A stretch of DNA of 64,000 bases from Eledone cirrhosa (lineage: Eukaryota), in assembly GCA_964016885.1 (NCBI GenBank), contig OZ024741.1, forward strand, positions 327,856,001 to 327,920,000, written 5' to 3'. The notes under the pieces are model-generated. The model saw only the letters and a list, made by a program, of their open reading frames with translations. It searched no databases and was not told the origin of the DNA. Below are positions 3,806 through 60,300 of this stretch, piece after piece; position 1 is the stretch's first letter, and each line of letters starts with the position of its first letter. Both the position numbers and the translations under genes were made by a program.

Positions 3806-4325
3806 CTATCCGTTAGGGCATAAAGTGGTGCTGTAATGCAGGAAAGTCTTATGCAATTTGTGTTTACAAGTCGAAATTGCCTCTGATTTTTTGTTTAAGA
3901 TGTGGTCATTGGCGTAGAGTATTTCAGGGCTTCAGCGGCGCAAAGATCACAAGGTCTATTATTTCCGTTATACGATCTAGTTCTAGCTAAGATGTGCCAG
4001 TGTAACCTATATTGGGTGTAGTTGTCTTTTAGACTCCAGATATAAGCTGAAAGTGACGTCATATTCCTTCTTAAAGGGTTAAGAAAAGAATGGGTGCGCA
4101 TGTAAAGACGCTGCTTTAATCTATTGGCGGTTAACCCTATGTAGGCCCAACGGGACGTGGGTGTTTCGACCTTACATTTGTAGACACTGTTACTGGAGAG
4201 GTATTTCCCGGATAGAAGGCAGTCAGCCCGATTCTTACAATTACAGTTGGTGCTAGCTACAGGGTTGCAGATGTTCCAAAGGCTAGGTAATTTAGTTAAA
4301 TTTGAAGCAGTCATGTTATGAGCAA
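3806..4325 (-). mobile_element. Naiad-type PLE GIY-YIG endonuclease fragment
   Basis: CNCKNRADCLLSGKYL...VYKC...YIGLT...R...H...CDLCAAE; after a frameshift continues CKHK to a stop at 3806. Confidence 0.8.
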
Positions 4326-4511
4326 GGTTCGCTTTTTTCTCTTCATTGCCAGGGAACGTCTTCACTAACCAAAGTATCGTCTTCCTCTTTTCCTTTTGTT
4401 GCAACGTTTTTCGAAATATTTACTTCTGCGTTCACAGATTGATATTTTCAGTCTCAGACGATCCCGTTAGGGGTGACAGCAGCGATTCTTTCCTTAAACT
4501 TTAATCTGTTA

Positions 4512-4558
<47 letters not shown>

Positions 4559-4613
4559 TGCCAACACTGGAATTGAACCATCAGCACATTTGAGGTATGT
4601 CATACATCAATTT

Positions 4614-4685
4614 ATATATTTTATCTGATGAGGACGTACTGAGGAAACAGCACACTACCTCCGAAATATATATAATAAAATATAT
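4614..4685 (+). ncRNA. Type I hammerhead ribozyme (PLE pLTR)
   Basis: ATATATTTTAT-CTGATGA-GGA...TCC-GAAA-TATATA-TA-ATAAAATATAT; 11-bp stem I. Confidence 0.8.
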
Positions 4686-4749
4686 TTGATTACATGAATG
4701 TCTATATTTATTAATATTTTGAATTAATATATATATATATATATATATG

Positions 4750-5520
4750 ACGCCCTCGCCCGTAGCGGATTTAAAGATAAGATAACTTACCTAGAAACCA
4801 CCGCAAGATGCAGAGGAGGAATAGACATAGGCAGATTAGCTGGTACAACCATCCCTTCAATAGAGAGGTATCTACTCCGATAGCTAGGATTTTCTTCACT
4901 TTGCTGAAATTACACTTCCCCATACAACATAGGTACCACACCATCTTTAATAAGAACACAATAAACTGTCTTACTCCACCACACCTAACCTAGCTAGGAA
5001 TATAGCCAACCACAATTCTAAAAAATTAAATAAGCCAACCACCTCCGAACCCAATCCCCGGACTGGGTCTCTATGTAATTGCCTAAATAAGGAAGCATGC
5101 CCACTTGAAAACAAATGCCTTACAAATGATATCGTATACAAATGCGATGTCATCTCAGGCACCGAGGATTGCAAAAAAACTTACATCGGCATGACCTCCA
5201 ACAACTTTAAGACCCGTTGGTATGCCCATACCCACTCCTTCAGAAGACCGGACAAATCAAATCAGACAACACTCGCCTACTACGTTTGGGACCTCAAAAG
5301 GAACTCCACCCCCTTCACGCTTAAATGGAAAATACTCCAGAAAGCGCGCTCTTACAACGGAGGACACAAGGGCTGCGACCTTTGTATTTCAGAGAGCTAC
5401 GAAATTTTATTCGCCAAGGGGCCGCTACTGAACAAACTCTCTGAACACTGCCCGAACTGCATGCACAAGAACTTTGCAACTTTCAAACAATTTAAGCCAG
5501 TGTTAAAGCCCGATGGCTAA
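4750..5520 (+). mobile_element. Naiad-type PLE 3' fragment (RT end, Zn linker, GIY-YIG)
   Basis: ISWYNHPF...IFNKNTI, CNCLNKEACPLENKC, IVYKC...YIGMTSNNFKTRWYAH, CDLCISE, CMHK; frameshifted; begins directly at (TA)n. Confidence 0.85.
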
Positions 5521-20702: not shown

Positions 20703-21434
20703 ACCGGTTACCGGTATGTATGACAAAAGGCTCAATGCAAATTATCAAGTGTTTAACAGAGCCGAGATACAAAGAGTTAAAATAATCAAATCTTAGTTTA
20801 ATACATTATATGCTGGCAATTGTTTCTTCCAGGGGGAAGTCTGGAATCATCTGAGCATAGGGAATGTCTAAACATGTGATTAAAATCCTAGTCATTTAGA
20901 ACATGTAGGAAGATACATAAGTGTTGTTAGTGTCATAGACATCATGTAGAGAATCACGAGTTAAAAAGATGTTATGCTTGAGAGAACACAATTACAAGGA
21001 GCACAGGTTGAAAGTGAAGAGGTACAAGCAAAAAGTACAGACAAAAAAAAGTTACAAGCAACGAAAAATGTAAGATAGGATAGATATAAGATATAAGATA
21101 TCATAGCACTGTAGATCAGGTAATGTTAGTGGTATACAATGCAGGAGTCAATACAATCAATAAGGCATGTCTGAGGAAATAGTTATATATATATATATGT
21201 ATGTGTGCATGTGTGTGTGTCAGTATGTGTGCACAAACTGACACACACACATACATATATATATATGTATATATAAACATATATATATATAAATACCAAA
21301 GATTAATATGGTTCATTGATTACTCAATGAATACAATTTTACAATAGATTAAAAGCGCTCAACAAAGAAATATTCCTTGCGTTTTAATATTATTCAAAAT
21401 ATTAACAAATGAAGAAAATTCACATACTCAAAAA

Positions 21435-21508
21435 ATATGCTTTATTATATATATTTCGAAGGTACTGTGTTGTTTTTTTCCAGTACGTCCTCGTCAGATA
21501 AAATATAT
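21435..21508 (-). ncRNA. Type I hammerhead ribozyme
   Basis: Reverse complement: TTTTAT-CTGACGA-GGACGTACTG…CAGTACCTTC-GAAA-TATATA-TA-ATAAAG. Confidence 0.8.
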
Positions 21509-21622
21509 GATTTGATTTATGACATACCTCTACGGTCTTGATATTTCAATTCCTGTATTGGCAGTACTGCAAATACTGGAATTGAAATATCAAGGCCGTA
21601 GAGTTATGTCATATATCAAATC

Positions 21623-21697
21623 ATATATTTTATCTGACGAGGACGTACTGGAAAGAAAACAACACAGTACATTCGAAATATATATAATAAAACATAT
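21623..21697 (+). ncRNA. Type I hammerhead ribozyme
   Basis: TTTTAT-CTGACGA-GGA C GTACTG…CAGTAC A TTC-GAAA-TATATA-TA-ATAAAA. Confidence 0.8.
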
Positions 21698-21734
21698 TTT
21701 AAGTATGTGAATATCTTTATTTGTTAATATTTTG

Positions 21735-21789
<55 letters not shown>

Positions 21790-23757: not shown

Positions 23758-24010
23758 TTATTTTGCTCTACGATTCTTATATATTTGATATATACTTTCC
23801 TTATCGAGCCCTCTATGGATTTTAGTCTTCAATTTTATTATTATTACTATATATATATACATATATATTTATATATGCAGAGGTTATATTTAATTTGTTG
23901 GGATTCAACAAGGTTAAACATTTTTATAACTTATATAAAGCACTCAACAGTTTAGTGGAGTAAATATACAATATATTAATAAATGGAAACTATATTTATG
24001 AAACCATAAT

Positions 24011-24071
24011 TATTTTATTATATATATTTCAATGGTAACCGAGATAAATTATGCCTTCATCAGATAAAATA
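24011..24071 (-). ncRNA. Type I hammerhead ribozyme
   Basis: Reverse complement: TATTTTAT-CTGATGA-AGGCAT…CCATT-GAAA-TATATA-TA-ATAAAATA; stem II is imperfect. Confidence 0.7.
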
Positions 24072-24192
24072 CAGATTTGTTTTATAAATAAATATTGATA
24101 TTCCCGAAAAAAAAGACAACATCAAGGGTTGGAATTCGCTGGGGGGTTGTCTTTTTCCGAGTATGTCAATATTTATTTACAAAACAAATCTG

Positions 24193-24258
24193 TATTTTAT
24201 CTGATGAAAGAGCACCATAATTTACCTTGGCTGCCCTTGAAATATATATAATAAAATA
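24193..24258 (+). ncRNA. Type I hammerhead ribozyme
   Basis: TATTTTAT-CTGATGA-AAGAGCA…TGCCCTT-GAAA-TATATA-TA-ATAAAATA. Confidence 0.8.
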
Positions 24259-24327
24259 ATTATGGTTTTATGAATATAATTTCCATTTATTAATATATTG
24301 TATATTATTATATATACTGTATATTAA

Positions 24328-27037: not shown

Positions 27038-29845
27038 CAGCACCCTGGACACGTTCGTCGACGCCTGCCGAAGCGCAGAAAATCGCTTCGTTCCGCCGCC
27101 GTTCCAAACGGCATAACATTTCACGGGGCGAACCCGCGCTCTCGGCTCGCTCCATAGCCGAAACGACATGGTCATCAAACCGGCGGACAAGGGAGGCGCT
27201 GTGGTGGTGTGACGCGCTGACCTCTGCACGGCTGAAGCCCTCAGGCAGCTCCGTTATCCCTTCCTCTACCGCCCTCTACCTTCCGACCTCACACCCCTCT
27301 ACAACAAAAAGTTTCCTCCACCATCCAACCCCTCGCCGACCTGGTCCTCACCCTCAACTGCTTCTCCTTCTCGGGTGAAGTTTACCAACAGGTCACTGGG
27401 GTAGCCATAGGCACAATACTGGGCCTCCACTATGCCAACCTTTTCGTTGGCCATGATGAGGCCCAAACATTTGCTCAGTACACCAGCCCTACGCCCGAAC
27501 TTTACGCTCGTTACATCGATGACTGTATCGGAGCCGCGACCCTCACCAGAGAACAGCTCGACTCCTTTCTCTCCTAATTTTGCTCCTTCCTCCCCTCCCT
27601 CCACTTCACCACCTCTATCTCTACCACGCACGTCCACTTCTTGGACATCTCCGTCGCCATCGAACACTCCCACCGCTCCCTCGTCACCTCCGCCTTCTTC
27701 AAATCCACTAACTCTCACTCCTATCTCGATTTCCCCTCCTCCCATCCTACACACACAAAACACTCCATTCCCTACTCCCAACTTCTCCGGGTCCGCCGCC
27801 TCCGGAGCCGCGATGCTGACTTCGAGTCCCAGGCCCTTTCTCTAGTCAGCCATTTCATCCGGAGAGGTTCCCCCTCCCACGTCCACACCGCCCACACTCG
27901 CGCCCGTGTTGTCCACCGCTCCACCGCCCTCACCCCACGCCTCCTCACCCCAACCCACCTTCTCCCTTTCCCTCTCACCTACCACCCTCCACCATACCCC
28001 TCCACCGTACCATCCTCCGCCTCTTCCGACGCTTCCTGTCCGACCCCTCCACCTCTCCGATCTTCCCATCCCTACCTTTCCCCTCCTTCAAACGCGCGCG
28101 TAATCTCCGCTCCCTCCTCGTCCACAGCTCCCTACCCCAAACCCACGTCCTTCTTCTCCCCCTCAGTTCCCTTCCCTGCTCCAGGCTCGCTGATTCACTT
28201 ACCCCCACATCACCATCACCACCACCTTCGAGGGTCTCAACGGCCGCTCCCTCTCTGTCCGGCACGCCTTCCGCTGCAGCTCCTCCAACCTAGTCCATGG
28301 ATTTCACTGCACTCTTTTTTTCACTTAACCTACGTCGGGCAGACTGGACTTCGCCTGGCGGGTAGCTCACGGAGCACCTCCACTATATTCGACTCGGCGG
28401 GAGTATCCCCATCGCCCGCCACTTTGGCTCCCCTAGACATTCCGCCCACCACCTCACAGTCTGTGGCCTGATCCCATACCATGGGACACCCACCACCCAC
28501 CTGACGGTCGAGCAACGCACCATATTCACACTACAGACCCACCCCCCCGGCCTGATCTCCCCACCACTCTTCCTTTAGCATTTGACCGCGCACTCCCCCC
28601 CACACACACATCCCCCACTAACACCACTAACACACTCTTCAGTTTCACCCCCCACCCCTTTGGACCGCCCCCAACTAACAATACTAACAACCCCCTCCTC
28701 CTAGCAGCCGCACACCCCCAATACACAGACCTTTACATAAATATACGCACACTCTATTCACACACCCTACTATCACCACTAACCACCACTCACACACCCG
28801 CATTCAACTCCTTCCACACCACCAGTATTACTAACACCCTCTCTACTACACACACACACACTCATATTCAAACACGCACACACACCCCAGTACACTACAC
28901 TCCCTCCCCCGTCACCAACCCCTTTTCTCTCCCTCTCTCTCCCTGCTGCACATACACCCACACACACACATCCCACTAAGACCTACACTAATATACCCCC
29001 CCAGACCACCACCTTCTCCCTCCACCTTTCACACCTATCCATCCCCTCCCCTGTCAACCGTACCTCCGCACACACAGACACACAGTCCACACCATATACA
29101 TACCCTATATTAACCTGTCATCCTCCTCTCTTCACCCTGCCTTGACACTCTCACCACATCCTGTTGCGCGCGCACCCCACATCTCTCCGCTTCCTCTCTA
29201 CCACACCAGGATTTTACACCGCCGGCTATCCATCCTACCACAGATGGAATCTCCAACATCTGGTCTCATACTCCGTGGGAATAACTTAGGAACATACACA
29301 CCAACAAACATTTACATTATTTTCGAACCACGCCACCTACATCCACAGCACATATGAACACAAACACACACGTGCGTATCCTCACATACACACACGCAGC
29401 CTCCGGATCCACACGCCCCTTCTCCCCTACCCCTTGTACCCTTTCCATCTACACGTACACACACATACCGACTTACACCCCACCCCATGTACGTACCGGT
29501 TTCCTTTTTACCTGAACATGGAGCCTCGTTCTTCCCCCAACTTTCACATTCACATACACACTCACACACACGTACACCTACAGACATACACACACACCAC
29601 CTTCAGCCCTCCCCGCTCGGACCCCCCGCCTCTCTCTCACCCCTTCACCCCATTCATCCACCACCACCCTACACGCCTCACACCCTTTCACCACTTGTTT
29701 CTTTTTATTTTTTATTTTTTATTTTTTTACTCTCTAAAAGAAATTTTTTCCAGCCTTTTCTCTCCACCCGCTTCTTTAAATCATTTTTTAAAATGTCTTT
29801 CCACAACTCCCCCACAAACCCTCGGAACCCTCTTCCTACCCACTT

Positions 29846-31587: not shown

Positions 31588-32255
31588 GGAAGATGATTCT
31601 ATTAGTAGAAATGGTGGAGTGAGTTGTGTGTGTGGGGGGTGTGGTTGTTATGTGTGTGTATGGGTGTTATGTGTGTGGGAGTATGGTTAGCATGTTAAGA
31701 TGAAGAGAATATATATATATATATTGTGTGTGTGTGTAGGAAAATGATTCCTTTAGTAGGAATATTTTTGAATGAACATATTTTCCTTACTTATTCGTAT
31801 TTGTTCTGTTGTATTGTCAGTGCAAACGTATGTTAAGGTTTATTTAGTTCGGGTTTTTATTTTCTAAAGTAGAAGGTGTTATGTGTGTGTGTATGTGTCT
31901 GTTTGGCTGGTTAGCATGTTATGGTGTTGATATAATGTATATTAAACCATATTTAATGCTGGTCTATATATTTTAATAAACATATTTTCCTTATTTATTC
32001 GTATTTGTTCTGTTTTATTGTTAGCGCAAAGGTAAAATGGGAAGACTTGGAATTTGGGTGTCTTATTACTTGCGCATATGCCTAGATGTGCGCTTAGTGG
32101 TATCTGTTTCGTGGTTGCATCTCGTAATTGTTGGCGATGAACTGTCATTCTGTTTCTGAGTGTGAGTTTAGTTTGTTCTATATAATCTTCATTGCATCCG
32201 TTGCATTTAATGGCATAAACTATATTTTTTGATGAGCAAGTGAAGTGATTTTTTA
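30910..32255 (-). mobile_element. Neptune-like PLE 3' fragment: GIY-YIG (31942-32255) + UTR/pLTR
   Basis: KNHFTCSSKNIVYAIKCNGCNEDYIEQT…RMTVHRQQ…SAHLGIC…KENMFIKIYRPALN; HHR variant at 31046-31081; terminates at (TA)n. Confidence 0.85.
31046..31081 (-). ncRNA. Type I HHR, U3-A8 core variant
   Basis: Reverse complement: CTT-TTGAAAA-GCAG(AAGAA)CTGC-GAAAC-CA-GTA-AAG. Confidence 0.6.
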
Positions 32256-32267
32256 CACACATAAACA

Positions 32268-32451
<184 letters not shown>

Positions 32452-32452
32452 T

Positions 32453-33478
32453 ATATTATTCAATATGTTAATAAATGAAAAATATTCTCATAATCCAAAT
32501 ATATATTTTATTACAGATATTTCAAAGGCAAAATGGTGTTTAAATACGTTTTTATCAGACAAAATATCAGACTTTATGTAAGAGAAAAGAGGAATAAAAA
32601 CAAAAGAAGGGAAGATGTGAGGAGAATACAGAGAAAACGAAGGGGAATAAAGAAAAACGAAGAAAAGGAAAAAGAAAATATGAAATATAGGGGAGAATAA
32701 AAAACCGTTGTCTTCAAATAAGAAATCAAAAATGTATTCACATATATCAATGAATATCGCTTGTATTGGATTACGCTTTAGCTAATTATACTTTTATATT
32801 ATATCCAGATTATTAGGTATAGATTACTTTCTATATCAATCAAATATTTAAGTTAATTACAAGTTTTATAATTTAATTTAGCTCATTCTAGATTATTATA
32901 ATTTTTAATTTTAAGGTAGTATATGCTATTAGTATTATACTACAGCTCTAAAAGAATTAATCTTTAAAGCCTAATTAAATAATTATTAAATATGTATTAA
33001 AATATAATTGTTTCTACTTTAGGCACAAGGCCAGCAAAGTCACCAGTGCATTACTGGTACTTTATTTTATCGACCCCGTAAGGATGAAAGGCAAAGTCAA
33101 CCTCGGCGGGATTTGAACTCAGATCGTAAAGGGACGTAACTATGCTGGAAAGCATTGCGTCCGACTCTCTACCAATACATTAAAATATAATACCATGTAT
33201 ATATCCCTATCAATACATATAATCTATTTTGTTCATTTATTATCCAAATTTAGAGATTCACTTCATGAAAACTTTGTTATTATTTAATTTTCATTTATTT
33301 CATAGAATCCAACTGTGGTTATATTTACTCTCTATAATTTTATTTCATACCGTAGCGGTATGTCGCATATCAAATCTTATATTTTATATGATGAAAACGT
33401 ACTTTTGAAATAAGTATAATAAAATATATATTTTCATTATGAGAATATTTTTCATTCATTAACATGTTGAATAATATT
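32453..33478. repeat. Old inverted pair of pLTR ends with degenerate HHRs (32453-32575 and 33360-33478)
   Basis: Arms related to the 21392-21737 family; cores decayed to CTGATAA and ATGATGA. Confidence 0.55.
33009..33178 (-). mobile_element. Family-1 SINE
   Basis: Consensus match; TSD ATTAAAATATAAT. Confidence 0.85.
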
Positions 33479-40710: not shown

Positions 40711-40773
40711 TATATACATATATATATATGAATATATATATTATATATATATATATAACAAAGGAATTGTGGT

Positions 40774-40864
40774 AAGTATGACCCCGACGGCAGAGCTCAA
40801 GCCGTTTCGACGGTCCAGAAATAGCCGTCGAAACGGCTTGAGCTCTGCCGTCGAGGTCATACTT
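40774..40864. repeat. Near-perfect palindrome in (TA)n
   Basis: AAGTATGACC.CGACGGCAGAGCTCAAGCCGTTTCGACGG … CCGTCGAAACGGCTTGAGCTCTGCCGTCG.GGTCATACTT. Confidence 0.9.
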
Positions 40865-40928
<64 letters not shown>

Positions 40929-44884: not shown

Positions 44885-45829
44885 CACACACACATATATA
44901 CGCACACACGCACACACACACACATATATATATTTGGATCGATATATACGTGGATGTGTGTGGGAGTGATTTCACATGTGTGTTTCTGTGTGCACGTGTG
45001 TGTGTGTATAAAAGGATGATTTCAACTCTAATATCACGAATATTAAGCAGTTTAGAAAATCAAGGTAGGCATTATTCTGATCAGTAAAACTTATCTATCC
45101 TACTTTCTTAATGACAAAAAATCACAAAATAAAACTATGAAATTTTCGCCATATTCTTTAAATGAAGTTTAATACAGTTCTGGGGAAAGTGATTTGAGAT
45201 AGGATTATATCTGCAAGACGTGCACATCATGGAATAAATGATAATGTTAATTATCTATTATTCCATGGACCCTTAACGCATAATACATTTGTAGGAACGC
45301 CGCAACAATGGATACGCTGTAACTTATGCATTCTGAGAGTTGAGGAATATCACCGCTCACTCAGGGTGACGACTGCCGAATTTTTCTAGGGATATTAAGA
45401 GGTAGAGATGAAGAGAGAGGGAGGGAGAGAGAAAGAGGTAGGGGTGATATGAACGAAGAATCGATTCACTTGCCATGCCAGTATTTTATTTATTGACATC
45501 GACATTATTAAAAGCAAAGGTGATCTCTGAGGGTTTGAACACAGCGCGAAAAAAGCCGGAGTGAATATCGCAAAATCTTTTATCCATCATGCTAACGACA
45601 GTGCCAATTTTCAGCGTTAACACTGCCAGTAGATTAAAATACTTGTTCTATAGCAGTTTCTTAGTGGTTAGGGAATTGGATACGCAATCGTGATGTTGCG
45701 AGTTGAGCAAGACACTTTATTACACATTGCTCGTTCATGCATGAGTTGCAAACGGTAGATGGGATCATCAACGGAAAGACCAATGTAAACATGGATCCAC
45801 CTGGCTTTCCATAACAACTGCAGCCAGCA

Positions 45830-45958
45830 GGCCTTGACCCAGCCGACGACAAGCGTCCCGATGGAATCATCCCCTTCCCATTCGAAGGGGGTAGATCCCT
45901 CATCTGGGACGCCACTTGTTGTGACACGTTCTCCACATCCAACTTAGTCGCTTCGACC
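45830..45958 (+). mobile_element. CRE-like RLE fragment
   Basis: GLDPADDKRPDGIIPFPFEGGRSLIWDATCCDTFSTSNLVAS, homologous to the peptide at 2440-2575 (-). Confidence 0.7.
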
Positions 45959-46330
45959 ACAAACCTACATGCCTTCTTTTCCCTGTCCCATATTATTATA
46001 TCTGGTCTGTTATGTTTGCATTTTATTGGGGTTTTAACTGGAACATTCCACCAGTACTCTTTCATATTATGTATGCATATGACTTCCACATTGCTGTAAC
46101 TATTAATTTGATTATTGTCGGGGCTATCTTTTCTAAGAATTGCATTGTACAGGGTTTTGGCCACTACATCATACTTCGTAGGCAAATAATAAGGTGATGA
46201 CATCTTTGGACAGCTGCTTATGATGAGGGTGACATCTTCGATGTTAATTCTGCAGAGTCTGCATTTGTTGACACATCTAGATATTTTGCCTGCATCACTA
46301 TCTCTTTTGTGAATCAGGTATTTTGTGTTG
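45959..46330 (-). mobile_element. R4/Dong-like non-LTR fragment (zinc knuckle + RLE)
   Basis: KCRLCRINIEDVTLIISSC…YWWNVPVKTPIKCKHNRPDIIIWDREKKAC. Confidence 0.7.
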
Positions 46331-46427
46331 ATATGTATGTATCTCTCTATCAATGTATCCATATATGTATCTATGCATGCATGTGTATATATATATGAGT
46401 CTTGAACTCCTTTTTTTTTTATTTGAT

Positions 46428-46479
<52 letters not shown>

Positions 46480-46684
46480 GGAATGTACATGTATATATAT
46501 AGGTCTTCGACAGTAAAAGCATTTCAATCCTTATTCTTTTATTCGTTTAATTGCAATACCACCATATGCACAAAATTGGATTAAACAGAGGATGAGTTAA
46601 GAGGTTGACAGATGGTTTGGTTCTTTCATCCTGTTTTCCGTAATTTTGGTGTGCAAATTTGCTACATATATGTATGTAGTATCA

Positions 46685-46729
<45 letters not shown>

Positions 46730-46769
46730 GATATTAAATAAATGGAAACTATATTTATAAAACCATATT

Positions 46770-46835
46770 TATTTCATTATATATATTTCAGGGATATCAT
46801 ATTAACAATATGTTATGCCTTCTTCAGACAAAATA
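46770..46835 (-). ncRNA. Type I HHR in the inverted 5' pLTR
   Basis: Mirror image of 50740-50805. Confidence 0.8.
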
Positions 46836-47224
46836 CAATATAGACAGTTTTATAGATAAATAGATTTGACATACCGTTCAACATCGACTTGTATTTGAAA
46901 AAGTTGATTTGGCAGTGAAAAATTGTAAACAGAAAGAAAGAAAGAAAGAAAGAAGGAAAGAAAGAAAGAAAACGAAGAAAAAGAAGAAAAAGAAGAAATG
47001 CATGCAACAAAATAGAGAGATGGAAAGATAGATAAAGAGAAGAACTTCATGTAAAGAAACAGAGAGAGATATATAGAGAGAGGAAATAGATAGAGATAGA
47101 TATATATAGAGAAAAGTAGGTAGTTGAACGACGTATCAATGATACATTTATTTATTTATTTATTTATTTAGCTCTAGTATTAATGTAAGGGAGATATATG
47201 TGGTTAGGAAAGAAAACTGAAAAA

Positions 47225-49436
47225 ATGGAATTCTTTAAGATTACTTCCTCTTTAAAAGACATACCTCTACCTAGAAACAAAGACTTTATAAAACAATTAA
47301 TAGATAAATCTGACTCTTTTATAAGGAGAATCAGGTGGCAAGCATTCCACTTTGATAAATCTAATATAAATGAAAATGTCCCGGACTTAAACAAAGTTTT
47401 CAAATCTAAAAGAAATCCATCCCCTAACAAACTTTTATCTGACTTTGAAAACGATATAATTTCTATCATACAAGGGGTCAAATTCAAGAGAAACTTCAAA
47501 GGCCAGGAATATCTGAAAGGCATTAAGGATAATATTGAGAGCTTAGAGAAAACTGAGAAGATCTTGGTGAAATCTGACAAGACCAACAACCTCTATGGAG
47601 TGCAGAAAGACATGTATAATGACCTCATACTGAAGGAACTGAGGAAAAAGTACAAGGTAGCAGATAAGGCCGAGCTTGAGAAAATGAATGTTGAAGCATC
47701 TTGTATAATGCACGAGTTGGAAATTGAGAACAGAACACAACCTTTCATGCCCAGGAAACCGAAGATCAATATGAAAGATCACAAAAGGAATTTTGAAAAT
47801 GACTTGCCAGTTAGATTGATCGCACCATCAAAATCGGACCTGGGCAAATTAAGCAAAAACATTCTTGACAGGGTGATACAGCAAATTAAAAACTTGGATT
47901 GTTTACCTAACCTGAGCTTGTGGAAGGGAACTGGAGAGGTTGTTGAGTGGTTTAAGCAAATTAAATATAACAATAATAATAAGTTTATTCAACTTGATAT
48001 TGCTAACTATTATTCTTCTATTACCCCTAATCTACTAAATAAGGCACTAAATTACGCATTCAAACATACAGACCTAACTAGCAATGAAATGCACATTATA
48101 TTATCGGCTAGGAAAACATTGATAGAATTTAATGACCAACTATGGACCAGAGCAGATAGAGATAGCAATTTTGACATTACTATGGGATCATCCGACTCAG
48201 CTCAGGTAACTGACCTTGTGGGCTTATTTTTAATCAATTCGCTACATAGGAAAATACCTGGTACTACCGGAGGTTTATATAGAGATGACATGCTTTTACT
48301 TATTGATAATAATAACTCTGAACTAAATAGAAAAAGAAAACAAATTACACAATTTTTTAATTACTTTAATCTAAAAATAGAAATTGAGAACAACCATAGA
48401 ATAGTCAATTTCCTAGATATAACATTAAATCTCAACACATGTCTTCACTATCCATTTCACAAGTTGAATGAAAACTTAAACTATGTCAGCTTTAACTCTA
48501 ACCACCCCAGATCTGTCAAAAACATTATAGTAAACTCTGTTCAAAAACGTATCTCTAGAATCTCGTCTAATAGAAAGATTTTCGACGAAAAAGCCCAGTA
48601 CTACAATGAAGCGTTAGCTAGAGTAGGATATAGTGATAAGATTATGTACATAGATAATGATAGACAAACTAAACAAAATAACAACTATTTTAATTACGGC
48701 CACAACCTTAACAACTATAATAGAAAGCATTACAATAATTCCAAAAGCCAAAAAAGAAATAGAACTAGGAACATAATATGGTCCCCCCCCTTTCTCACTA
48801 AACATTAAAACCCACATCGCTAAACTATTTTTTAAAGCTCTTGATAATCGCTTCCCTAGAACACATAGGTATCACTCAATTTTCAATAGACATACTATAA
48901 AATTAACCTACTCATCCACCAAAAATTTAGCACAAAATATTAATAGAATAAATAATAGGAACTTAAAACCTAGCGATAATAGTATAAATAATATACAAGT
49001 TAACAAATGTAACTGTAGAGATAGATCTAAATGTCCGTTAAATAACAACTGCTTAGCTAAAAATATAATATACAACTGTAATGTTAAAACGGACTCTAAT
49101 TCTTTTAACTACGTCGGTTCCACATCGACGGAATTTAAACTTCGCTATAATAACCACAAGAATTCTTTCACAGATCCACGCAAAAAATCTTCAACAGCAC
49201 TATCAGGCGTACTCTGGCAACTTAGGCAAGATAACGTTAGATATTCGACGGCTTGGAATATAGTCTCAAGAGGGATTCCTTTTAATTCATCCTCTGAGAC
49301 ATGTGACCTCTGCGCGGAGGAGATATTCTTTATACTAAAATCTAAAAATTCCCTTAATCTACGGACAAATTTATTCAGTTGCTGCAAACATAGATTGAAC
49401 TCAACTTTTAAATATAAATTTAAATTTAAAATGTAG
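47225..49436 (+). CDS. PLE polyprotein (RT + Zn linker + GIY-YIG), one frameshift at C8 (48783-48790)
   Basis: MEFFKITSSLKDIP…, KSDKTNN, KDHK..F, LDIANYYSSI, FDITMGSSDSAQVTDLVG, GGLYRDD, VNFLDIT, SNHP; from 48792 an open frame without stops reads CNCRDRSKCPLNNNC, IIYNC…YVGST…FKLRYNNH, CDLCAEE, CCKH, TAG at 49434-49436. Confidence 0.9.
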
Positions 49437-49886
49437 TATATTTAGTTTGATTTGTAATTATTTGGGAAACTAACCGATAAATCTTTCGATTTCTTCTTTT
49501 TATTCTTCTTTTTATTTTAAACATTCTTCATGAAAAATTAAACTACCCTAAAAGTTGATGCTCCAAATATATCGAATAAACGTTACACTAGATAAACTTC
49601 TATATTAAATATAAGAACATATGTAGACCAAATAGGCATCCTAAACTTTTGAAATGATTTCTGCTAGACGCGATTTGGTAAAAAATGTTTAGCTTTATCT
49701 GTTTTCGACTCTGATGCTTATAATGAACTTGGCAATATATTGTCAATTAATTTTGAAGGGTTGATCTTTGTGGTCGATTTGCGTGGCATATTATGTTTTT
49801 ATTTTTTATTATTTTAATATTTTCATTTTTAATATGTAATATTTTTTATTTTTTATTTTTCTATTTTATTTATTTGTTTATTATTA

Positions 49887-49926
<40 letters not shown>

Positions 49927-50739
49927 CTGTTTTTGTTTCTGATATTTTTATTAATATATTGAAATCTGTTCTCTATTTCTGCTTGATAGATAATCATGTA
50001 GAGTAAAGACAAGAATAGTATTGTTAAAATTAATATAGACTCTATATATATATGTGTATATATACACATATATGTATGCTTAAATTTTTATAGCACAATG
50101 AGAATGTTCTCCGTGTGAAATAGGGGTTTGCAGAGCTGATCACGTAAATTCACATCGATGTTTGTAGTTATCATATAAACATATGAATTTTTAAAACTAG
50201 ACATAAGATCATTACTTTTCACACATTATAGATACGTGTCTCATTCAGGAATACTGATATTTACATTATAGTGCCTGGTTTTTATACGAACTAATATTTC
50301 TATATTCTGCCTCGCCTATGTCTGGTTACTTTTCATTTTTCTCTCTATATAACGGCTGGTTTCTTTCCTAACCACATATATCTCCCTTACATTAATACTA
50401 GAGCTAAATAAATAAATAAATAAATAAATGTATCATTGATACGTCGTTCAACTACCTACTTTTCTCTATATATATCTATCTCTATCTATTTCCTCTCTCT
50501 ATATATCTCTCTCTGTTTCTTTACATGAAGTTCTTCTCTTTATCTATCTTTCCATCTCTCTATTTTGTTGCATGCATTTCTTCTTTTTCTTCTTTTTCTT
50601 CGTTTTCTTTCTTTCTTTCCTTCTTTCTTTCTTTCTTTCTTTCTGTTTACAATTTTTCACTGCCAAATCAACTTTTTCAAATACAAGTCGATGTTGAACG
50701 GTATGTCAAATCTATTTATCTATAAAACTGTCTATATTG

Positions 50740-50805
50740 TATTTTGTCTGAAGAAGGCATAACATATTGTTAATATGATATCCCTGAAATATATATAATG
50801 AAATA
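50740..50805 (+). ncRNA. Type I HHR in the 3' pLTR
   Basis: TATTTTGT-CTGAAGA-AGG…CATATT(GTT)AATATG…CCT-GAAA-TATATA-TA-ATGAAATA. Confidence 0.8.
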
Positions 50806-50932
50806 AATATGGTTTTATAAATATAGTTTCCATTTATTTAATATCGTAAATATACTCCAAATACTTGTTGAGTGCTTTTATATCAGTTATAAATATTTAC
50901 TAGTTGTAACCCAACAATTTAAATATAACTTT

Positions 50933-50992
<60 letters not shown>

Positions 50993-55670: not shown

Positions 55671-57269
55671 ATGGATTCCAACAACGAAAAAAAAAATGAA
55701 AAATTGCATGACAATATTAATACCACAAACAAAGACACGACAAACACAAAAATAACATTTGAAAACAACATCATAACAGAAAGCAAAGCAGACGACAAAG
55801 TCAACACCAATAATATTTCATTTGCATAAACAACAAAGAAATCTTTGACATATATACCTGAAAATATTTCAGACGTGGCACAAATAATTACAGACGCCAA
55901 ACAATACATAACTGAAGGAGAAAATGGTATTTTATCGGTAAAAATGCCTCAAGAACTCACCAAAGACATTGAAAGTCGGACGGTCGTTTTCCGCACCATC
56001 AACAACATTTCTAAAAAACCTGAACAGCCAACTTAAACAGAAATCAAAACAGTACTTACAGAAGTACTTAATGAAACCACTTTCATAAGAAAAGACAGAC
56101 TGTATGGAAGCCTAGCGCTTATTATGAAGAACGAAACGGCGGCAAAAAAATGTGCTTTGTCACCGATTCGTTCGAAAAACTTTACCTTTTATCTATCTTA
56201 TATGGGTAAAAGAACTCAACGCATATGGCTGGATGCAATGATGCCAGATGTGGACTACTGCTGGCTCATAGCTGGCTTCATCGATTCAGCGAATGACAAC
56301 GTGATTTTCATTGGGAAAACCACAGACAATGCTTTCAGTGGAACAGGTATAGAACTTGTAGTGCAAATGAAGCCTGAACGCATCGCCCAAATACCCGACA
56401 GAATCCTATTAGAGGGCCACGGGTATATAAACATTAGCGTGGTGGGGAGAAGGCCGTTCTGTCATATCTGTGCAGGCAGAGGGCACCTGAAGGCGGCTTG
56501 TCCCCAGCTCAACAAAAAGAAAACCCTGCTACCAACACCAGCTCCACCACCACCACCACCACCACAACAGATAAACAAACAACAAAACTCAGTCCCACCC
56601 AACCCGTCCCTCAGTAAAACTACACCACCACCACAACACAAACAGTCACAACACATTACCCCAAAACAAAATACAGGCCCACCCAACCCCTCACTCAATA
56701 AAACAACACAACCACCGCAGCCACAACACACAACACAGTCTAACATAGTGACATACATCTCCCCCACAAAGAAAACCAACACGGAAATATTACCAGCAAA
56801 CATACCTCTTCCCTCCAACACTGAAGATAACCCAACGAATTCGGAGGAAGAAACGGAGTCCTTCAGACAGATTAAAAGGAAAAAAAGAAAACATGTGCAA
56901 AACACACAAGGCCAAACAACCCCCACCCAAATGTCAACTCAATCCAACAAAACACAAAACACCCCTCCAGCAACAAACAAAACCAAACCTGCCCCTCCCC
57001 TCTTCGAAACACTCACACCATCCGAAAAAGAGACATTACACTATACTTACATCAACAGAAACAATAATAAATTAAATGAACTCATAAACAATAATCCTTC
57101 GGTACAAACCGAAGGTGTAAACTTTGTTTCTTCAGAAAACTACCCACATTTAAAATTAATAAAGATCCCAATGAACCTCTACCAAAAACTAAAAAAGGAT
57201 TTTAAGCTTTCCCCCTCCCCTTCCCCTCCCCAACACAAATCCAAACACCCCAACCCCACCACACACTGA
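55671..57269 (+). pseudogene. LINE ORF1 (gag-like zinc knuckle), two in-frame TAA
   Basis: Single frame from ATG 55671; VVGRRPFCHICAGRGHLKAAC followed by a Pro/Thr/Gln-rich tail. Confidence 0.75.
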
Positions 57270-57393
57270 CGACCCCACACCACCACAAGACACCCCTTCA
57301 CCCAACACCTCCGACCCCATGGAAGTCGTGCGACCCGAACACCGGGAAGCAGATAGGTAGGTCTCTACACTCTCCTTTGGGTTTGCCGCCCAC

Positions 57394-60300
57394 ATGGATG
57401 TGTTAAGAGTAGGATGTTTGAATACACGTGGCCTGGGCTCAACTTGGAAGCAAGCAAAGCTTCTAAATGACCTCAGGTCATATGGTATACATGTAATGGT
57501 TATCTGTGAGACTCGGATCAGCGTCGTGCGGCAGCTGGTCTCTACCTTCGATGACTTTGAGGTGCATGCATCTCTCTGTCAACCTGGAGGTGGGGGTGGG
57601 GTTGTCGTACTGCTGCAAAAACACCTGGTTCTTGCCGTACAGGCTGTTCACTCGGACCCGGAGGGTCGTTTGTTGGTGCTAGACGTTGGCAGTAGTGAAG
57701 GTGCGGCCTTGAGACTGGTCGCGGTCTACTCCCCTTTCGGAGCTGAACGGCCCGACTTCTTCCAGCGTTTGGAGACTTTTCTGGGAACGTCGCGTTCCCA
57801 ACTTGTAGCCGGGGATTGGAATGACATCCTAGATGCCCGTCGGGACTATGCAGGAGCATGTCCTAATAGAGGGGGGTGTAACAACCTCAAGGGGTTACTC
57901 GACCGTTTTAACTTGGTCGATAGATATCGACTAGATTTTCCAACTGTGCCTACCTGGACTTGGACGAACCACAGTGGTCAATCTTGATCGTACTTAGATA
58001 GATTCTTAGTTAGAAGTAAGGATAGGGACATATTAAGCTGTCCAGAAATGCTCACGGTTGGCTATACGGATCACAAATTAGTGACCTGCGTAGTCAATCT
58101 CGAGAAAACACATAAACAGGGTCCCGGTTACTGGAAACTTAATTTGTCTTTACCGGCAAAAGAGACTTACAGAAACCGGATTAGCAGATTAGTTAAGGAG
58201 AGGTTGAAGGGTGCAATCGTCAACAACCGATGGTGGGCATCTCTCAAAAGAGAGTTTAGAACAGAATCAATAAGTTATAGCAAGATGTTAGCTGCCGATA
58301 GGAATAGAAACGAGAAAGAATTAACAGGTAAATTAGTAGAGGCAATCAAGAACGAAGATGTGGCCAGAGTGCTGGCATCGAGGACGGCCTTGAACCAGTT
58401 TTTCGATGCAAAGCACGAAGGCTGCGTCATTTGAAGTAAAATACGTGCTCTAGGTAATGAGGGGGCCAAAGCCGTTGGCTGGGCCCGCGTGACAGAAGCT
58501 AAGAGTGGAACTCGATCCTCCATCCGGTCGTTGCAAGACGAGGATGGACGGGTGATCCGGGACCTAAGCAGCTGTGCGAGGCCTTTCAAAGGCACTTTGC
58601 CCGATTATTCGGGGGAGGCGAGGGTCCGGGCGGGGACGTGGATTTCGGTCCATACCTCGACGGCCTGCCGCGTCTCTCGAGCGAAGAGGCAGAGTCCTGC
58701 GAGGGACCAATCTCGGCTGATGAGATCGGGGATGCGCTGAGCCAATGCAGTAGACGCAAATCACTAGGTCTCGATGGTATACCTTACGAACTTTATTTAG
58801 CAATGCCGGTCTTCTTCTCCGAACTCCTCGAAGCGGTCTACTGCAATTGGCAGCAGAATGGGAGAATTCCTTGTTCTGTAGCCAAGGGCGTAGTCTCGCT
58901 GGTGAGGAAGGACGAGAACAAGGGGGATTGTATAAATAATTTCTGCCCATAACCCTGCTAAACACAGAGTTAAAGATTTTGGCCAAGGTGTTAGCAAAGA
59001 GGTTGGCGCTTGTCGTGGGTGGCCTGGTGGGAGATGCGCAGACATGTGCCATCCCATCCAGGTCCATTCACGATAACCTCCACCTCATGCGATACATTAT
59101 AGAGAGGGTTGGCAACAAACCCGGCTTCGGTGGGGCCCTGATCAACTTGGATCAGTCTAAGGCCTTCGATAGGGTCTACCATGGTTACCTGGATGCGGTG
59201 CTAGCAGCGGCTGGGTTCGGTCCTGTTTTCAGAGGCTGGATCACTGCCTTACATAGCAACCACATCTGTTCTAGGATCAACGTGAACGGCTACCTTTCGA
59301 AGCCGTTCGAAATCACACGATCCATTCGACAGGGTTGCCCTCTCTCCTCCCTTCTGTACGTATTGACTCTCGAGCCTTTACTGAGGAAGTTGGAGTTGTT
59401 GCAGGGTATCCCCCTGGAACCAGGATTGAGCAAAGCGGTGTCGGCCTACGCCGATGACGTTACAGTAATGGTATCGACCGACTCAGAGATCGGTACCTTA
59501 CTGGAGGATTACAAAAGGTTGTCAGGAGCGAAATTGAACCGGGAAAAATCCATCGGGCTGCAACTCGGAACGTGGAGAGGCAGACCGATGCCTCCCGACG
59601 GTGTCGTCGGATACTGGACGGAGGGCTCGGTGAAGTTGATTGGGGTCTGGTTTTGACCGGACCTCCAGGTGGAAAAGAACTGGGACGAGGTTACGAACGA
59701 GGTGTTTGCACTAACCCAGAAATGGGCCAAGTGTAAGCTGTCCCTAAAAGGCCGGGCGGAGGTTACAAACAATTACATAGCGTCCGTCACTTACTACCGC
59801 CTGACTGTCGTGCCTTGCCCTAAGGAAACACTCACCACCATGGAACGCATGCTCTTCCAATTTCTTTGGAAGAAGCGCCCTCCTATGGTGAGAAGATCCA
59901 TCTGCTGCCCCAACCTTCGAAAGGAGGGCTGGGGATACCGTGGTTGATGATGCGTAAGCACGCATTAAGGCTACAGCACCTACAGGTATTCCTCACTGGT
60001 CAACCGGTGTGGGCTCCGTTCGTGAAGCGAGCCTTTCCGAGACTCGTCTCGCTCACCGAGCTGCAGTCCTGGGTCAAGCAATGATCCGGAAAACTGGGAG
60101 ACTGGCACACTGAGTGTGCCCAGGCGCTCAGGGCCGTCTGGCAAGCGGGCCAGGCCATCGGTGGAGAATCCACCTCATCATTCTATAGAGGGCTGGTGGC
60201 TAGCAGGGACGATGACACCCTTGGAGAGTCGCTGGACATGGAAGAGGACGAACTGGCCAGCCTGTTCGGTAGGACTTTCGGCCCGGGACCAATGGACAAC

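Follow-up and report, generated by a model that had tools for sequence, protein, structure and literature searches.

Penelope-like elements of the Hydra clade, as described in PMC8557442, carry a reverse transcriptase (RT) followed by a C-terminal GIY-YIG nuclease, RWK and DKT motifs, a CxCx5C linker, CxxC and CxH motifs and hammerhead ribozymes, and insert at (TA)n targets. We have analysed an element of this kind at positions 46727-50935 of a 64,000-nucleotide stretch of Eledone cirrhosa DNA (assembly GCA_964016885.1, contig OZ024741.1, positions 327,856,001 to 327,920,000 of the forward strand), the whole of which is referred to as the window, together with the family to which the element belongs. 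The family resembles the described members Hydra-1_Obim, Hydra-1_Amil and Penelope-13_HM in RT and C-terminal nuclease order, RWK/R, DKT, linker, CxxC and CxH, hammerhead and (TA)n insertion, and the tables of the same paper record for Penelope-13_HM both an inverted 5' copy and hammerheads on the two strands (PMC8557442). Elements of the Naiad clade, to which a sequence-only reading had assigned the locus, are alike in their partial tandem or inverted structures, one-sided tail and (TA)n preference but differ in an N-terminal nuclease, DKA and the lack of a canonical hammerhead (PMC8557442). The locus is almost certainly a Hydra-clade Penelope-like retrotransposon that has been truncated at its 5' end and frameshifted. 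Our overall reading, to which we assign a probability of roughly 0.65, is that this broken Hydra copy acquired its two inverted arms from two RTs that began at fixed starts, A and B, on opposite strands of the (TA)n target. The family is of interest for how the inverted repeats and tails of Penelope elements arise, since it offers a near-absolute genomic pairing rule and, at both start sites, a candidate RNA signal that contains a natural compensatory pair.

The mechanistic part of this reading draws on the Poseidon element PAc of Anolis carolinensis, a member of a different clade, for which the main text of PMC11167929 reports that the protein nicks and extends both target strands, that two internal RNA starts bound the tail and that RNA 3' of the starts, but not hammerhead cleavage, is required, a dimer being predicted. 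The window family is alike in having a hammerhead upstream and, on the two-start model, would be alike in its two tail-bounding internal starts, the extension of both target strands and the RNA 3' of the starts. In contrast, the PAc starts lie inside the open reading frame (ORF), in one AC-rich stem loop, whereas the proposed starts of the window family lie in the untranslated leader, each with its own hairpin copy; A/B pairing of genomic ends is not described in that main text. One-sided tails have likewise been reported, a tail on one of the inverted pseudo-long terminal repeats (pLTRs) being described in the text of both PMC3846280 and PMC8557442. One-sided tails and two start sites are already published, while strict A+B pairing and a duplicated hairpin were not found in the open-access literature, although subscription papers and unseen supplements could hold them. 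Twin priming of L1 also involves two primings on opposite target strands that lead to an inversion, as in the two-start model, with the second primer annealing upstream to give inversion without duplication. In the window family, by comparison, both proposed starts are fixed and close, which would give inverted repeats.

Paired ends and duplicated hairpin

The features of the window copy are as follows.

46694..46726: (TA)n target microsatellite, left flank
46727..47215, minus strand: inverted arm, a 5'-truncated copy of the element 3' end, ending at A in (TA)n
46770..46835, minus strand: predicted type I hammerhead of the inverted arm, core 46827-46778
47215..47216: head-to-head junction of two 5'-truncated copies, about 1 nt shared, the sense copy being without the family leader
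47225..48808, plus strand: N-terminal region and telomerase-like RT (RWQ, DKT, YRDD, thumb), the frame closing past the frameshift
48777..49436, plus strand: out-of-frame remainder with CxCx5Cx5C linker and GIY-YIG-type nuclease with CxxC and CxH
48783..48791, plus strand: frameshift within a C run that varies in length among copies and here has two bases fewer than in open siblings
49437..50359, plus strand: long, AT-rich 3' untranslated region
50360..50848, plus strand: 3' pLTR segment, same sequence as the inverted arm, 50848 being end A
50740..50805, plus strand: predicted type I hammerhead of the 3' pLTR, core 50748-50797, predicted cut after 50797
50849..50935, plus strand: tail of about 87 nt from end A to end B, on the sense arm only
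50854..50878, plus strand: conserved hairpin ACTC-loop-GAGT-GCTTT immediately 3' of end A; the matching hairpin after B lies in the leader that is missing in the window copy
50936..50991: (TA)n target microsatellite, right flank

The arms at 46727-47215 and 50360-50848 are reverse complements over 489 bp with 0 mismatches, the first mismatch occurring at 46726/50849, and both outer ends of the element enter (TA)n. Alignment thereby confirmed the constant coordinate sum of 97575 in the sequence-only reading, and its placement of the ORF start 10 nt after the inverted arm is equally correct, the ATG being at 47225. The identical peptides that it listed in the two arms are present, although they represent merely microsatellite reading frames. 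Hammerheads pointing outward on both strands were also substantiated as predicted ribozymes, a core and three stems being found in each arm, with stem I of 8 bp, a bulged stem II and a stem III of 2 bp with a palindromic loop. The core pattern matched 8 times in the window versus 0 in 100 shuffles, and across 169 family copies the core is nearly fixed except at its free position, which varies. Rfam, searched with the arm by itself and with the window (top 150 of 184 hits), gave no hammerhead match, and the fold of the monomer is weak and not favoured (z 0.27). In PMC4209133, hammerheads with a short stem III are described as poorly active monomers that need dimers.

Copies of the family terminate at one of two positions approximately 87 nt apart, A (50846-50848 in the window) or B (50934-50936), exact ends numbering 2,380 and 2,518, respectively, in the genome and 0 for reversed controls. 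The two ends are nearly always paired with each other in the sets of insertions investigated. Outward-facing pairs, counted from the coordinates listed for one contig (100 A and 84 B ends within its first 168 Mb), comprised 25 A+B of 26, one BB and no AA, against an expectation of 0.50 (p 3e-7). Tolerant matching of short insertions, a set that overlaps the previous one, detected both ends in 49 of 100 stretches, corresponding to 42 distinct insertions, all 42 of which are A+B. Full-length insertions were represented by 36 independent loci after 3 segmental duplicates had been dropped, and 23 of the 24 that were resolved are A+B, the other being AA. A similar pattern was observed in two sister families, referred to as families 2 and 3. 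In family 3 (30 loci) the partner of a tailed end leaves at A in all 11 resolved cases, and in family 2 it does so in 15 of 17, two duplicates among them; the two remaining family 2 partners represent one insertion whose far end is A.

Each end is followed by a hairpin. The motif CTC-loop-GAG(T/C)GCTTT starts 7-11 nt 3' of A and recurs 3' of B, and the regions 3' of A and B align better than 1,998 of 2,000 shuffles. The outer pair of the stem distinguishes the two copies, the hairpin being ACTC…GAGT after A and GCTC…GAGC after B in three families. After A, this pair is A-T in 47 of 47 distinct sequences with CTC retained (5 further sequences are without CTC), and after B it is G-C in 9 of 9 (4 without). 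A gapped pattern with only the 3' half of the motif matched one family 3 locus, which carries the predicted GCTC.

The loop of the hairpin after A is hypervariable in families 2 and 3, with conserved flanks (loci L132-L191). At the family 3 locus matched by the gapped pattern (L192:1423-1758), two head-to-tail units of 165 nt, each consisting of A, hairpin, B and hairpin, lie in (TA)n with no hammerhead or ORF, and this unit is a candidate minimal mobile unit.

Clade, coding capacity and age of the window copy

Motif counts were obtained by aligning the open sibling P0001 (737 aa) with 58 of 120 listed homologues (59 proteins). In the 737-aa open siblings the RT and then the nuclease are encoded in one ORF, which in the window copy is split by the frameshift. 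The siblings begin at the same ATG after an untranslated leader and their nuclease is C-terminal, so the N-terminal arrangement of Naiad is absent. The RWK/R position is K in 33 and R in 21 of the 59 proteins, the sibling having RWR, and DKT (D118 K119 T120) retains T in 55 of 59, in place of the Naiad DKA. Linker cysteines are similarly conserved (C596 59/59, C598 55/59, C604 58/59), as are CxxC (C694/C697, 59/59) and CxH (C721/H723, 58/59) of the nuclease. Reading the P0001 nuclease revealed no CCHH motif, a reading made without alignment to CCHH-bearing references. Insertion in (TA)n and the predicted hammerhead in the 3' repeat are both Hydra characters, the latter being inconsistent with Naiad. 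The element unit of approximately 3.75-3.85 kb departs from the description of Hydra as generally <3 kb because it includes a 1.4-kb 3' untranslated region. In a by-eye comparison with the supplement text, printed Hydra proteins are co-linear with the window family protein; the best database protein matches are approximately 40% identical, the best named one being from Argonauta hians. Combined, the C-terminal nuclease, DKT and hammerhead contradict the Naiad assignment and agree with Hydra, while the broader description is upheld: the element is Penelope-like, its inverted pLTRs bear hammerheads and its family has been active recently.

Structural comparison supports the RT. The predicted model of P0001 has a pLDDT (predicted local distance difference test) of 90, and telomerase RT is first in Foldseek and tied first in VIA-align (Z 16.1, root-mean-square deviation 2.8, 252 aligned), these searches of the full model having covered the RT only. 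A single-sequence model of the nuclease reached a pLDDT of just 33. The nuclease is a putative assignment from motifs, from weak Pfam GIY-YIG matches that 4 of the 59 aligned proteins gave (best E 0.0011) and from Atlas clusters (0.95-0.96). Pfam returned no match for the window pieces or for P0001, and a PDB sequence search gave nothing below E 0.13.

The window copy is an ordinary dead copy. It had been regarded as essentially complete, a description that does not survive the frameshift near 48785, the missing leader and 8 private nonsynonymous changes. All of the RT, linker and nuclease motifs that had been noted are indeed present, but in two frames (47225-48808 and 48777-49436) and with RWK/R mutated to RWQ, a variant seen once in the genome. 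The frameshift lesion also drops non-C bases, and the lesion pattern occurs at 2 places in the genome. The leader between pLTR and ATG, present in siblings, is lost 10 nt before the ATG. The window ORF has accumulated 9 private substitutions in 2,212 nt (0.41%), 8 of them nonsynonymous, and reads from two other samples carry the family letter at all 9 positions. An autonomous copy would combine an open ORF with an intact upstream pLTR and leader, a combination that the window copy lacks, and it is very unlikely to be a source element.

The C run, located in the WFAPPF codons, is widely variable in length (up to approximately 16) and is a frequent frameshift site among siblings; in vivo slippage or sequencing error are both possible. 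Four loci at 26.52-26.80 Mb (L055, L056, L059 and L060) hold near-identical versions of a single insertion, share their junctions and apparently stem from segmental duplication; one of their ORFs is open and three are frameshifted.

At the level of the family the picture is one of recent activity. The near-identical copies anticipated from the window sequence were recovered as near-full-length ORF matches at 97-100% identity in the 40 that were scored of 4,673 genome-search candidates. A DNA search with the pLTR, by contrast, gave no match, probably because such a search passes over very common words. Exact ORF starts number 246, and 15 of 38 long ORFs examined, the window copy included, are open. 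Singleton changes in 12 open siblings are 23 synonymous versus 53 nonsynonymous, and shared changes 18 versus 11 (Fisher p 0.004), a contrast which indicates that selection acts on the source lineages and that copies decay. The closest sibling ORF is 0.63% distant from the window copy, and sibling arm pairs differ by 0.12-0.75%, a range based on 9 clean long pairs out of 27 rows in which many automatic pairs were mis-paired or reached flanks. The window copy is young yet typical of its family and no younger than its siblings; 'very young', as it had been called, therefore applies to the family and not to the copy. Hydra elements, described from few families, are present at thousands of copies in several families of this one 3-Gb animal genome. 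Recently active Penelope families are also reported from Octopus vulgaris, in a main text without mention of Hydra (PMC13282606).

Origin of the inverted arms

By analogy with Poseidon, a two-start mechanism is somewhat favoured. Each hairpin would position one RT, probably half of a dimer, and one cDNA would be made from A and one from B on opposite target strands, each stopping independently. Repair would then join the 5'-truncated cDNA ends to give a head-to-head inverted repeat. In the window copy, the B cDNA would have reached 3.7 kb and halted 10 nt past the ATG, and the A cDNA would have reached 489 nt. Arms start upstream of the hammerhead cut in 94 of 117 cases, and a template spanning the hammerhead implies RNA that was uncleaved or re-ligated. 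The points of 5' truncation are broadly spread, with no pile-up found where the hammerhead cuts or at a single transcription start. In 9 of 18 short insertions the A arm reaches >10 nt further 5' than the B arm, and in 6 of 23 long insertions it is the full-length arm.

A more general proposal, that Penelope integration is an obligate two-start reaction in which the two copies of an RNA hairpin would each recruit an RT, to A and to B respectively, is tentative and its odds fall short of even. If correct, the two-start pair would prime both target strands and every event would leave one short and one tailed end, the two-start rule alone would account for inverted pLTRs and the one-sided tail, and the 165-nt unit, with its two starts and two hairpins but no ORF or hammerhead, would be the minimal mobile signal. 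As the family provides naturally open ORFs, a pairing rule and candidate signals, the question is testable in the existing in vitro assay.

Several observations weigh against two starts as the origin of the arms. No partner end was resolved for 51 of the 100 short stretches or for 12 of the 36 full-length loci, and one AA pair (full-length set) and one BB pair (outward-facing set) depart from the rule. Families 2 and 3 each contribute one locus to the evidence for the B hairpin, the family 3 locus being a derived mini-repeat and not an ORF junction; the three families are related, and the A-T/G-C switch may be one event. Hairpin stems are just 4-8 bp. Near-symmetric palindromes, as fold-back would give, occur at 7 of 18 short junctions. 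Finally, no read or contig across the 47215/47216 junction or the left flank was found among reduced-representation reads from other samples.

Cutting at the DNA level, in which recognition of the motif would lead the nuclease to make staggered cuts at A and B in a DNA intermediate, either tandem or circular, likewise predicts one A and one B end, and the short stem might form in single-stranded DNA. The text of PMC8557442 ascribes tails to nuclease-mediated resolution, and PMC11167929 notes that the Drosophila Penelope tail is reported as necessary for nuclease recognition of DNA. The same source, however, places tail boundaries at RT start sites on RNA (PMC11167929), and one cut intermediate does not readily yield two same-sense arms with independent 5' truncation points, leaving this explanation unlikely but still a serious competitor. 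Fold-back self-priming, in which the cDNA from B would snap back, copy itself and stop at A, is more doubtful still. It would explain the near-symmetric palindromes, possible fold-back products of a kind that PMC3846280 interprets as self-priming, and the window copy, with its short A arm nested in the long B arm, is compatible with it. As the sole route it is excluded, since a copy cannot exceed its template and yet the longer arm is the A arm in the 9 short and 6 long insertions given above; in addition, the window junction shares merely about 1 nt.

An error of assembly, through fold-back or a chimera, might be suspected behind the inverted arm from 0 differences in 489 bp despite 0.41% private changes in the ORF. 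A fold-back artefact would duplicate end B, whereas the arm stops at A, the other natural end in the family, and is followed by (TA)n and by unique flanking sequence. Opposite-strand joints in the arm region are seen in raw reads from other copies, and 0/489 is unremarkable given the divergence of clean sibling pairs, making an artefact very improbable. The original interpretation of an intact autonomous Naiad that mobilises the small hammerhead elements of the window has in its favour the identical arms, a frameshift located in a homopolymer, where assembly errors arise and siblings vary, and possible cross-mobilisation between hairpin-sharing families. It is barely credible, as domain order, DKT and hammerhead refute the clade, the lesion extends to non-C bases and its pattern occurs at 2 places in the genome, the leader is lost, 8 of 9 private changes are nonsynonymous and the small elements have coding relatives of their own.

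Small hammerhead elements and other window features

Three short insertions of the sister families are present in the window.

4555-4730: family 3, hammerhead-bearing
21290-21737: family 3, one tailed and one short arm, hammerhead-bearing
23883-24315: family 2, tailed arm on the minus strand and short arm on the plus strand, hammerheads 24063-24019 (minus) and 24201-24250 (plus)

These small hammerhead elements are 75-78% identical to the window arm over alignable parts. Genomic matches number 6,131 for the family 2 pattern (1 mismatch allowed) and 2,101 for the family 3 pattern (2 mismatches allowed), and sister-family ORFs encode proteins 70-76% (family 2) and approximately 60% (family 3) identical to P0001. 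Judged by sequence, the small elements are truncated copies of these coding sister families. The window copy had been proposed as their autonomous partner, a role not supported, the small elements belonging to sister families that have ORFs of their own; cross-mobilisation between families with a common hairpin motif may occur. Non-LTR retrozymes are alike in being short hammerhead elements from Penelope-like pLTRs, as described in a preprint (bioRxiv 10.64898/2026.07.22.740005), whereas those of the window are head-to-head truncated copies of coding families and not tandem arrays. Nuclease-region fragments at 3895-4419 (minus) and 4749-5520 (plus) derive from more distant Hydra-like families and are 33-51% identical to P0001.

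Other decayed elements occur elsewhere in the window. A fragment at 45661-46530 (minus), presumably resembling the C-terminus of a non-LTR element with a restriction-like endonuclease, gave no real Pfam match. Broken frames at 56037-59656 (plus), with ORF1, apurinic/apyrimidinic endonuclease-like and RT-like segments, are taken to be a long interspersed nuclear element, L1/Tx1-like by motifs, and decayed frames at 27299-28471 and 31942-32487 presumably represent RT thumb and nuclease pieces of other Penelope-like elements. A long GC-rich inverted repeat lies beside (TA)n at 40748-40927, and similar sequence flanks copies at two other loci (L196 and L192).

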